Positions 46,306-48,147 of a stretch of 64,000 bases of DNA are shown here, piece by piece (the first letter of the stretch is position 1; every line of letters begins with the position of its first letter). The notes under the pieces were generated by a model. The model was not told the origin of the DNA and did not search any database. It saw only the letters and a list, made by a program, of their open reading frames with translations. The translations under genes and the position numbers were made by a program. Source of the DNA: Botryllus schlosseri (taxonomy: Eukaryota); contig CM119371.1 in NCBI GenBank assembly GCA_051294905.1, positions 5,892,001 to 5,956,000 of the forward strand, in the 5' to 3' direction.

Positions 46306-46684
46306 CTGTAAAATTGATAACACGCGGTTAAATTCAGCGCTTGTGGGAACATTAAACTAGTCTTACTTACAATCTATTTTCTTTGTCGTCGTCTTCCTTG
46401 ACTCTTTATGCTTAATAAAACCAGCAACATATTAAACTACGCACGCTAACGTCGTGTTATAGCAGATAACTTACCAGTAAACTCGTGTATTCAACTCAAA
46501 CCTCGAGTTCGCTCCGTCTGTTCAACAACAAACAAAAAAATCATTACATCTCACTCGCTAGTTCTGAACAGTAATAACTCACCTCTGCAATTCTTTGTTT
46601 AAATTTCGATGTTTGTTTTGTCTGTAGGATAAACAAATAACAAATTATATTCATAAATTAAAGTACTCGTACCGAATAACTTAC
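46306..46684 (-). other. Predicted four-intron micro-exon leader of pPolB (introns 46306-46370, 46411-46474, 46518-46582, 46622-46684)
   Basis: GTAAGT/GTGAGT donors and pyrimidine-rich AG acceptors define 63-65-nt introns. The last acceptor abuts the ATG. Confidence 0.7.
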
Positions 46685-47024
46685 TCATTAAACCCTTAAT
46701 CATGCGCCAATGTAATCTCTATATGTAAACTATTTAAATCTAATGACATAACTGACTTGAGATAGCGTTATCCACCTGGAAAACAAATGATACATTAACA
46801 AACAATGCAAAAATCATATCAAACAAACAAAATGTACAAATAAATCCCAATAACACCACACACAATACATACAAGTACATCTCAATAGAATTCAATGACA
46901 GGATTATTTTCTTGGGTCACTATGAAAATGATTGAGATCATGAAAAGACACATCGGTGTCGTAGTTTTTTTTTCGACGTATAAATAAATGATTGTGCAAG
47001 TCCTGGCTGTATTTCGATATCAGC

Positions 47025-47513
47025 TCAACCAATCAACAAACCATCAGTGGGGTATACGTAAAACTGTACATTAGCCAGACAGACCGCCCGGTATTTTGTA
47101 TCTGGTCGAGAGTCTTGTAACACATCTAGTGTCGTTTCCAATCTTATAGATTCAACAAATTCGTCGAATTCAGCTAGTGATGTAATCCCCACTGGGACTT
47201 CTAATACGCTATCGATGTTCGCCGATGCATGAAAATACCGAAATCTCCCAGCGGGGATGTTATGTAAAATGATTCCATACGCGAAATTCACTTTGAAACG
47301 GGTCGACTCTGAGAAAAATATCGCTTGGATATCGCGGAAAACGTCGGGTAGCTCACGATCGATGACTCGGATATTATACACGCGCCGACTCTGATTCACT
47401 ACATATGATTTTATCGCTTGCCAGTTCTGGGATACAACTTCTTGGTATTGGTCGCCTGTCTCTGGCGGTGTGTCTTCTTCCTCGCGAATGCGATTTCTCC
47501 GTCGTCGACTCAT
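47025..47513 (-). CDS. Stand-alone paralogue of the pPolB N-terminal (putative terminal protein) domain, 162 aa from MSRRRRN
   Basis: SQNWQAIKSYVVN...VYNIR...DVFRDIQ and VCLANVQFYVYPTDGLLIG align with the pPolB N-terminus. It has 79 extra internal residues and stops right after LLIG. Confidence 0.75.
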   Translation of the reverse strand: MSRRRRNRIREEEDTPPETGDQYQEVVSQNWQAIKSYVVNQSRRVYNIRVIDRELPDVFRDIQAIFFSESTRFKVNFAYGIILHNIPAGRFRYFHASANIDSVLEVPVGITSLAEFDEFVESIRLETTLDVLQDSRPDTKYRAVCLANVQFYVYPTDGLLIG

Positions 47514-47872
47514 CTGTAGAAGCAATAACACAGGGTCAAATTCAACACTTTCTAATATTAAACCAGCGTTACTTACAATGTGGTTTCTTTGGCGGTATCT
47601 TCCTTGGGTCTTTATACTAAACAAGTAACACGTCAAACTATATCCACAAATATAGTGCTATAGCAGATAACTTACCAGTAGACTTGCGTGTTGTTATTAA
47701 TCCTTGAGTTTGCTCTGTCTGTTCAACAACAAAATCATTACATCATGCTCACTAGTTCTGAACAGCAATAACTCACCGTTTCAATTCTTTAATTCCACGC
47801 TTGTTGTGTCTGTAGGATAATCGACCAACAAATCATATTCGTAAATTAAAGTAGTCATATCAGATAACTTAC
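47514..47872 (-). other. Predicted four-intron micro-exon leader of the stand-alone ORF (introns 47514-47576, 47617-47675, 47719-47776, 47810-47872)
   Basis: Canonical donors and acceptors define 58-63-nt introns; homologous to 46306-46684. Confidence 0.7.
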
Positions 47873-48147
47873 CTATTAAGTAGTTAACCATAGACTCGCT
47901 CTGGAATACGCTCAGCTCACCAAATACGTCGTTACTATAACTCAATTTTAACTGTTTCAATCCGTGGATTATGTCTGGATCAATAAAGTACGGCACGCGG
48001 TGATGTCTTTTTATAGGGCTCATTTTCGCACGCTTAGGTGATTCGCTTTTTATTTATATTATGTAACAACCCTTTCCCTCTCGGTACCGCGCGGCGTTTC
48101 ACACCTTATTGTGGTTCCCTTCGCAGTTATTGTTACAGACATCTGTT

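Follow-up and report, generated by a model that had tools for sequence, protein, structure and literature searches.

Short introns and micro-exons ahead of two pPolB-derived open reading frames in a Polinton element of Botryllus schlosseri

We describe two homologous clusters of short introns on the minus strand of a Polinton/Maverick element in a 64,000-nucleotide stretch of the Botryllus schlosseri genome (assembly GCA_051294905.1, contig CM119371.1, positions 5,892,001 to 5,956,000, forward strand), hereafter called the window, whose first letter is position 1 of all coordinates given. Each cluster, or module, stands directly in front of an open reading frame (ORF) derived from the Polinton polymerase gene pPolB: the upstream module, copy A, in front of a short frame designated ORF A, and the downstream module, copy B, in front of the pPolB ORF itself. 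The eight GT-AG segments of the two modules are, with high probability, real short spliceosomal introns. As to what they interrupt, we consider it probable, though by no means secure, that they lie in the 5' part of a five-exon pPolB gene, the N-terminal extension of which has been disrupted in copy A and copy B alike.

Each module consists of four introns, 58-63 nt long in copy A and 63-65 nt in copy B, separated by micro-exons of 33, 43 and 40 nt and of 39, 43 and 40 nt, respectively (Table 1). These sizes and borders had been proposed in a first-pass annotation made from the sequence alone, and they agree with the sequence as re-read here. The borders are of the U2 type, GT...AG, with a consensus GTRAGT at eight of eight donors and a YAG acceptor, either CAG or TAG, at seven of eight; the third intron of copy B ends in AAG. 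In copy A and copy B alike, the last acceptor abuts the ATG of the downstream frame, CAG being followed directly by ATGAGTCGA. The micro-exons of the two copies differ in length by 6 nt in total, so that the frame is kept, and the modules are 73% identical overall. No third copy of the module was found within the window. Read from the ATG at 48023, spliced copy A comprises 267 nt, or 89 codons, and is in frame with the ATG at 47513. The stops earlier counted in the spliced frames, one in the upstream copy and two in the pPolB copy, are likewise present, as TGA in the former and as TAA and TAG in the latter. The TATA-like site reported near 48050 corresponds to TATAAATAAA at 48058-48049; two sibling contigs of sequencing run X1 have a different letter at 48056.

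Table 1. Features of the two modules, the frames behind them and the surrounding element, in window coordinates (minus sign, minus strand; dot, no strand; pLDDT, predicted local distance difference test).
Feature	Positions	Strand	Basis
Putative TATA-like site TATAAATAAA, 26 nt upstream of ATG 48023	48049-48058	-	read in sequence
Copy A exon 1 from ATG 48023, 50 codons + 1 nt	47873-48023	-	sequence; RNA joint ends at 47873
Copy A intron 1, 63 nt, GTAAGT...CAG	47810-47872	-	sequence; absent from 2 sibling-copy X10 RNA reads
Copy A micro-exon 2, 33 nt; TGA 47783-47781 is the sole in-frame stop of the spliced copy A frame	47777-47809	-	
Copy A intron 2, 58 nt, GTGAGT...CAG	47719-47776	-	sequence; absent from 2 sibling-copy X10 RNA reads
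Copy A micro-exon 3, 43 nt	47676-47718	-	coding-type substitution pattern vs copy B
Copy A intron 3, 59 nt, GTAAGT...TAG	47617-47675	-	sequence only
Copy A micro-exon 4, 40 nt	47577-47616	-	sequence, substitution pattern vs copy B
Copy A intron 4, 63 nt, GTAAGT...CAG; acceptor abuts ATG 47513	47514-47576	-	sequence only
Copy B intron 1, 63 nt	46622-46684	-	sequence
Copy B micro-exon 2, 39 nt; in-frame TAA 46601-46599	46583-46621	-	sequence
Copy B intron 2, 65 nt	46518-46582	-	sequence
Copy B micro-exon 3, 43 nt	46475-46517	-	sequence, substitution pattern vs copy A
Copy B intron 3, 64 nt; ends AAG, weak acceptor	46411-46474	-	sequence
Copy B micro-exon 4, 40 nt; in-frame TAG 46376-46374	46371-46410	-	sequence, substitution pattern vs copy A
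Copy B intron 4, 65 nt; acceptor abuts ATG 46305	46306-46370	-	sequence
ORF A, 162 aa + stop; complete N-terminal pPolB domain, ends after ...LLIG	47025-47513	-	alignment; model pLDDT 90.7
Copy A polymerase remnant: ~20 more homologous codons, ~3.3-kb deletion, homology to region behind pPolB stop	46805-47024	-	sequence
X', copy of segment behind pPolB stop; acceptor ttttccag at 46777-46776	46700-46775	-	repeat families D15, D16
pPolB ORF, 1197 aa; ~79 residues of N-terminal domain core missing	42712-46305	-	Pfam PF03175, alignment
Segment X: AG 42602-42601 abuts ATG 42600; possible intron 42418-42321; exon 42320-42081, AATAAA 42113	42081-42602	-	sequence, RNA
Whole Polinton/Maverick element, 18,263 bp	31771-50033	-	inverted repeats, termini and target duplication read
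Left terminal inverted repeat region; pairs with 49414-50033	31771-32568	.	inverted-repeat search
Right terminal inverted repeat region; pairs with 31771-32568	49414-50033	.	inverted-repeat search

The extended donor pattern GTRAGTWAY occurs at nine minus-strand sites in the window, seven of them within the modules, and at none on the plus strand; the eighth module donor, which falls outside this pattern, is GTAAGTAAG. Clustering of at least four GTRAGT within 300 nt has a Poisson probability of 6e-6. The minus strand of the element was scanned for GTRAGT followed at 45-119 nt by a CAG or TAG that is itself preceded by at least 60% pyrimidines. Six of 13 GTRAGT sites passed, and all six are among the eight module introns, the two failures there being intron 2 of copy A (A-I2), which falls to the pyrimidine filter, and intron 3 of copy B (B-I3), which falls to its AAG. 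No candidate intron was seen in the other genes of the element.

Comparison of the two copies bears out the earlier claim that splice signals are conserved between them: the core signals, taken as six donor and three acceptor positions per intron, are identical at 35 of 36 positions, compared with ~79% elsewhere (binomial P = 0.002). The companion claim, that the intron interiors have diverged, was overstated, since the interiors are identical at 123 of 158 positions (78%) and the micro-exons at 88 of 114 (77%); for whole introns the figure is 197 of 242 (81%). In the adjoining ORF, 33 of the 43 codons that encode the same residue in A and B are identical, and third positions overall are 59% identical. 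The intron interiors therefore stand at the silent-site level of that ORF, neither strongly diverged nor specially conserved, and the idea that the introns are more conserved than silent sites was ruled out by the same-residue codons. An internal repeat unit of ~100 nt was also considered as the source of the four introns and rejected: Tandem Repeats Finder (TRF) returned nothing, and the eight units share splice signals only. No conserved RNA structure was found in the introns (z-scores from -2.3 to +1.3, with folds unlike between copies), and an exact scan for the conserved 25-letter pattern of intron 2 gave no match in metagenome contigs and none in viral contigs.

Splicing itself is seen in X10, a run of RNA. 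In two of its reads, positions 47873 and 47719 are linked by 37 letters whose reverse complement is clearly homologous to exon 2 in either copy, with introns 1 and 2 removed at exactly the predicted borders of exon 1 with intron 1 and of intron 2 with exon 3. The reads derive from a sibling copy, not from this locus. Base 47719 is the acceptor G and is matched by the read's own G; hence 38 nt lie between exon 1 and exon 3 of the sibling. Among the eight junctions that the first-pass annotation had proposed for checking against RNA, those of A-type introns 1 and 2 are thus found spliced in the sibling copy, whereas two reads of X14, also an RNA run, cover 46339 in intron 4 of copy B and are unspliced there. 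The remaining introns of copy A, 3 and 4, and those of copy B would presumably be spliced too. Depth in both RNA runs is ~1 or less over 46064-48307; no joint between a donor of copy A and an acceptor of copy B is listed, a negative that carries no weight at such depth.

Two further runs, X1 and X5, behave as DNA of a high-copy family: the entire element, with its introns, is covered at multi-copy depth. X1 was ruled out as RNA, its depth being at the multi-copy level in 30 of 30 bins, with introns covered. No joint is listed at the predicted exon borders in these DNA-like runs, and the longest pieces there span introns. Contigs of X5 alternate between A-like and B-like sequence within the modules, at 46494/47703, 47812/46635 and 47734/46561, and in one form 1208 nt are skipped, which suggests that certain members of the family have a single mosaic module rather than a tandem pair.

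Both frames behind the modules derive from pPolB, as had been claimed. The first ~165 residues of the relatives align with all of ORF A, and the downstream frame matches Pfam family PF03175 above the cut-off (E = 5e-8) and has 475 relatives, the best of them only 43% identical. Relatives and copy B alike continue past ...LLIG, where ORF A stops. Since ~20 further codons of homology are followed by a large deletion, copy A is read as a polymerase gene with an internal deletion. Copy B has the polymerase gene at full length but without an exon 1 of its own. The place of that exon is occupied by X', which meets the last ~19 nt of copy B exon 1 at an abrupt junction, and 46700-46846 matches 42515-42671 at 75%. 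No sibling fragments of the polymerase N-terminus were found. At about residues 100-120 of pPolB (45900-46060) lies the motif YNDNLCAFRC, in which D, C, F and R are invariant across the relatives in the alignment, and which we take to resemble the catalytic-cysteine motif of OTU-type proteases; a Pfam search at E up to 5 gave no match to an OTU family.

The spliced exons have the appearance of coding sequence. Spliced copy A contains one stop in the ORF frame, compared with 11 and 7 in the other two frames, and only 1.5% of its shuffles have one stop or fewer. Copies A and B differ at 23 positions of exons 3 and 4 taken together, of which 6 are first, 4 second and 13 third positions of codons (permutation P = 0.008 in this frame and 0.02 when any frame is allowed). 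A single base separates the copies in 11 of the codons there, and seven of these are synonymous, compared with an expected 20% (P = 0.002); the corresponding counts in the other frames are 4 of 13 and 2 of 14. The ratio dN/dS is 0.26 in exons 3-4 (26 codons) and 0.29 in the adjoining ORF (79 codons). Of the two readings entertained in the first-pass annotation, that of decayed coding micro-exons gains from the distribution of stops and the third-position bias, while that of an adenovirus-like leader loses, the exons being coding-like. Reading the TGA codons as selenocysteine was tried and dropped, with no Rfam match in the whole window at the gathering score or in 41500-48200 at E up to 1.

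We favour the following account. Exons 1-4, which in copy A measure 151 nt from ATG 48023 and then 33, 43 and 40 nt, would encode, or would recently have encoded, an N-terminal extension of ~89 residues that continues without change of frame into the main exon, which would begin with the ATG abutting the last acceptor. The module is present twice because the 5' part of the polymerase gene stands in tandem. Copy A would have kept the promoter-side exon 1 and the complete N-terminal domain and would have been shortened by a stop and a ~3.3-kb deletion; copy B would have kept the full-length polymerase, its exon 1 being replaced by a copy of the segment behind the polymerase gene and the core of its N-terminal domain being lost. 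With in-frame stops in both extensions, only the ATG-initiated ORFs would be translatable here, and the micro-exons would therefore form a 5' leader by default. We infer that exons 1-4 were once coding, and likewise the order in which the gene was rearranged.

Several points weigh against a coding extension. The coding tests cover 26-28 codons and were made after the translation had been viewed. There is no ATG in the 238 nt of micro-exons 2-4 compared with 10 in the 500 nt of introns (P = 0.035), which is consistent with an untranslated leader that avoids upstream starts. In all of the closest relatives (P0001, P0122, P0126 and P0121) a Met stands directly before an arginine-rich stretch, which suggests that this Met is the true start codon, although the gene models of these relatives are presumably intron-blind, which tempers the argument. 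The peptides of exon 1 and of exons 3-4 have no relatives among 269 proteins and 82 loci. Spliced RNA amounts to only two reads, possibly one molecule, of a sibling copy and of A-type introns 1 and 2, and exon 2 of that sibling, 38 nt long compared with 33 in A and 39 in B, breaks the frame. The X14 reads over intron 4 of copy B and the AAG acceptor of B-I3 belong on the same side. Many of these facts would be accommodated by a non-coding 5' leader with several introns, in which translation would truly begin at the ATG abutting the last acceptor and all four introns would be retained because splicing aids export, translation or silencing escape of an otherwise intronless-looking mobile element. 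Besides the Met common to the relatives, the missing ATGs, the stops in both copies and the frame-breaking sibling exon, such a leader can claim that splicing turns position -3 of the ATG from C to A in both copies, and that in P0121, P0126 and P0002 the in-frame residues upstream of Met abound in Leu, Phe, Cys and Tyr, like the translation of a pyrimidine tract; these residues hint, from protein and without DNA, at an acceptor just upstream of the Met. It does not predict the third-position bias and the synonymous excess of exons 3-4 in the ORF frame, nor the near-absence of stops over 89 codons in that frame alone, nor a length difference between A and B that preserves the frame. We think it unlikely, but the small samples, and tests made once the translation had been seen, leave it a serious rival. 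The least credence of any explanation is due to chance resemblance, by which the GT...AG segments would be unspliced and the region a decayed, duplicated piece of coding or intergenic sequence. The low RNA depth and the unspliced X14 reads agree with this, as do introns 1 and 4 of copy A, each of 63 nt and open in frame, so that read-through would preserve the frame; it is nonetheless very improbable in the face of the donor density, the conservation of 35 of 36 splice-signal positions, the exact removal of introns 1 and 2 in two RNA reads, and a frame that is open only after splicing.

A further alternative is a programme like that of adenovirus, in which a promoter near 48050 would give a long transcript and the exons of copy A would be spliced alternatively to ORF A or to copy B and the polymerase, perhaps also to the acceptor and ATG at 42602-42600. 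No minus-strand AATAAA lies between the ORF A stop and copy B, the next being at 44793 and 42113; copy B has neither exon 1 nor promoter of its own and carries an acceptor-bearing segment in their place; A and B have homologous, compatible splice sites; and three ATGs, those at 47513, 46305 and 42600, directly follow an acceptor. The stand-alone form of the N-terminal domain, moreover, is not private to this copy, since P0121, with 78% identity to ORF A, has its last residue at the same point. Such a programme is nevertheless improbable. Two stops close the upstream frame of copy B, whose intron 3 ends in a weak acceptor; ORF A looks truncated, with polymerase homology for ~20 codons past its stop and then the large deletion; the model of the N-terminal domain has no clear match among solved structures; and the supposed leader exons bear a coding signature. 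The adenovirus analogy, which needs a non-coding leader shared by several ORFs, is not supported, and neither, at the RNA depth reached, is a switch between terminal protein and polymerase by alternative splicing. Slightly more doubtful still is the idea that this lineage has a split replication protein, a stand-alone N-terminal domain and a polymerase lacking its core being made from one promoter by alternative splicing of the micro-exon modules. If true, the arrangement would resemble that of adenovirus, where priming protein and polymerase are separate, and the element would depend on host nuclear splicing.

The N-terminal domain has a wide distribution, with 562 relatives of ORF A at E up to 0.001, and it frequently ends at the C-terminus of short predicted proteins. 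The closest relative, P0121, has 168 aa, is encoded on an 858-nt contig, and was the only sibling of ORF A found. The domain has no Pfam family and no known function. Its predicted structure, confidently folded by its pLDDT (Table 1), has no clear solved relative: no Foldseek match was obtained at E up to 0.001 among solved structures, and the best VIA-align Z, 5.4, lies below the usual background of 7-8. A terminal-protein role of ORF A is neither supported nor excluded. Environmental contigs (L010, L012 and L021-L025) show, by predicted splicing, a C2H2 zinc-finger exon, a GT-AG intron of ~250-300 nt and an N-terminal-domain exon in frame, and split 5' ends seem, from these predicted gene structures, to recur in this polymerase clade. 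Most of 45 distant loci (of 82 fetched) had no enrichment of donors upstream of the first ATG: 33 had no donor in 700 nt, and in the remaining 12 there were three without a usable ATG, the rest having one to three donors upstream.

Behind the polymerase stop, in segment X, stands the third acceptor to be followed immediately by an ATG, ttttccag and then ATGGATAAC (42598-42602, minus strand), which opens a 45-codon ORF. A decayed copy of this arrangement is found at 46775-46777, in place of copy B exon 1. RNA reads bearing the sibling letter cover 42540, six in X10 and nine in X14. Over 42081-42320 both RNA runs are far deeper than over the rest of the element, the mean depth of bin 42137-42697 in the two read directions being ~77 and 72 for X14 and ~15 and 17 for X10. 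Most of the X10 and X14 reads continue into unlike sequence, for example at 42321, where they break exactly at the acceptor ...tagcag, and the RNA has poly(A) at 42081, ~25 nt after AATAAA and within the first codons of the ATPase ORF. Deep reads that break at an acceptor, together with the poly(A), point to a paralogous locus that is well expressed and spliced to an exon outside the window. The upstream exon of this abundant 42081-42320 RNA is absent from the window.

The element that carries the modules is intact and recently inserted, because the arms of its terminal inverted repeats are 96-100% alike (344 nt at 99%, 196 nt at 96% and 112 nt at 100%) and a 6-bp target-site duplication, GCCGAG, flanks it at 31765-31770 and 50034-50039. 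Its termini are AG...CT, the ends reading AGTAGTG... and ...CACTACT; a 6-bp target duplication and 5'-AG...CT-3' termini are reportedly among the Polinton features given by Kapitonov and Jurka in 2006. On the minus strand it encodes an rve integrase with chromodomain at 39711-40781 (Pfam PF00665, E = 3e-16) and, at 41490-42098, a P-loop ATPase identified by Pfam P-loop matches, whose score against Pox_A32 (E = 0.01, 15.8 bits) is below the cut-off of 22.8. In a Pfam search for capsid proteins and an adenain-like protease, the other ORFs of the element had no match even at E up to 5. Other mobile elements lie around the Polinton at 8947-10284, 13750-15410 and 18584-19114 (reverse transcriptase, MULE transposase and a second rve integrase), and a Sushi-domain exon-like ORF is found at 61117-61497. 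Direct repeats at 30084-30593 and 51939-52442, 99% identical and 21.85 kb apart, lie ~1.2-1.9 kb beyond the ends of the Polinton, and further copies of motifs of 46 nt and 51 nt occur near 28320-28440 and within the terminal repeats. The Polinton may sit inside another repeat or may have been duplicated together with it.

Core Maverick genes are called intronless in passages of the preprint of Widen et al. (10.1101/2022.07.12.499685). Introner transposons within eupolintoviral elements of dinoflagellates are described in passages of Gozashti et al. (2025). By term look-up, introns, exons and splicing go unmentioned in Krupovic et al. (2014), and splicing in Starrett et al. (2021). Full-text searches and term look-ups turned up neither spliced leaders nor 5' micro-exons for the polymerase genes of Polintons. 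Polinton core genes are usually predicted as single ORFs, and intron-blind gene finders would miss the true 5' end of a polymerase gene such as this one. Some Polinton genes are said to have been shown with introns by Kapitonov and Jurka in 2006. Spliced genes need transcription and processing in the host nucleus, and being spliced may bear on how the host discriminates such elements from its own genes. The locus also illustrates how an element can be rebuilt, a partial tandem copy having parted the polymerase body from the conserved N-terminal domain, each now in an ORF of its own.

In its inverted repeats, 6-bp duplication, AG...CT termini, pPolB, rve integrase with chromodomain and P-loop ATPase, the element is a Polinton/Maverick like those of other animals (polintoviruses). 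It departs from the usual form in that its pPolB gene has four introns of 58-65 nt in the 5' part, and in that this part is duplicated, the N-terminal domain and polymerase body being encoded by different ORFs. The pPolB genes of the environmental contigs share with it a short upstream exon, a GT-AG intron and an N-terminal-domain exon in frame; they differ in having a single visible intron of ~250-300 nt and a zinc-finger exon, and their protein is only 36-37% identical. The tripartite major-late leader of adenovirus, a related protein-primed DNA element, offers a further parallel, since there too several short spliced exons lie upstream of an ORF and the last acceptor adjoins the start codon. 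The adenovirus leader, however, does not code for protein and, made from a single promoter, is joined by splicing to many different ORFs, whereas the small exons described here have a coding signature and a nearly open frame and are in frame with one gene.

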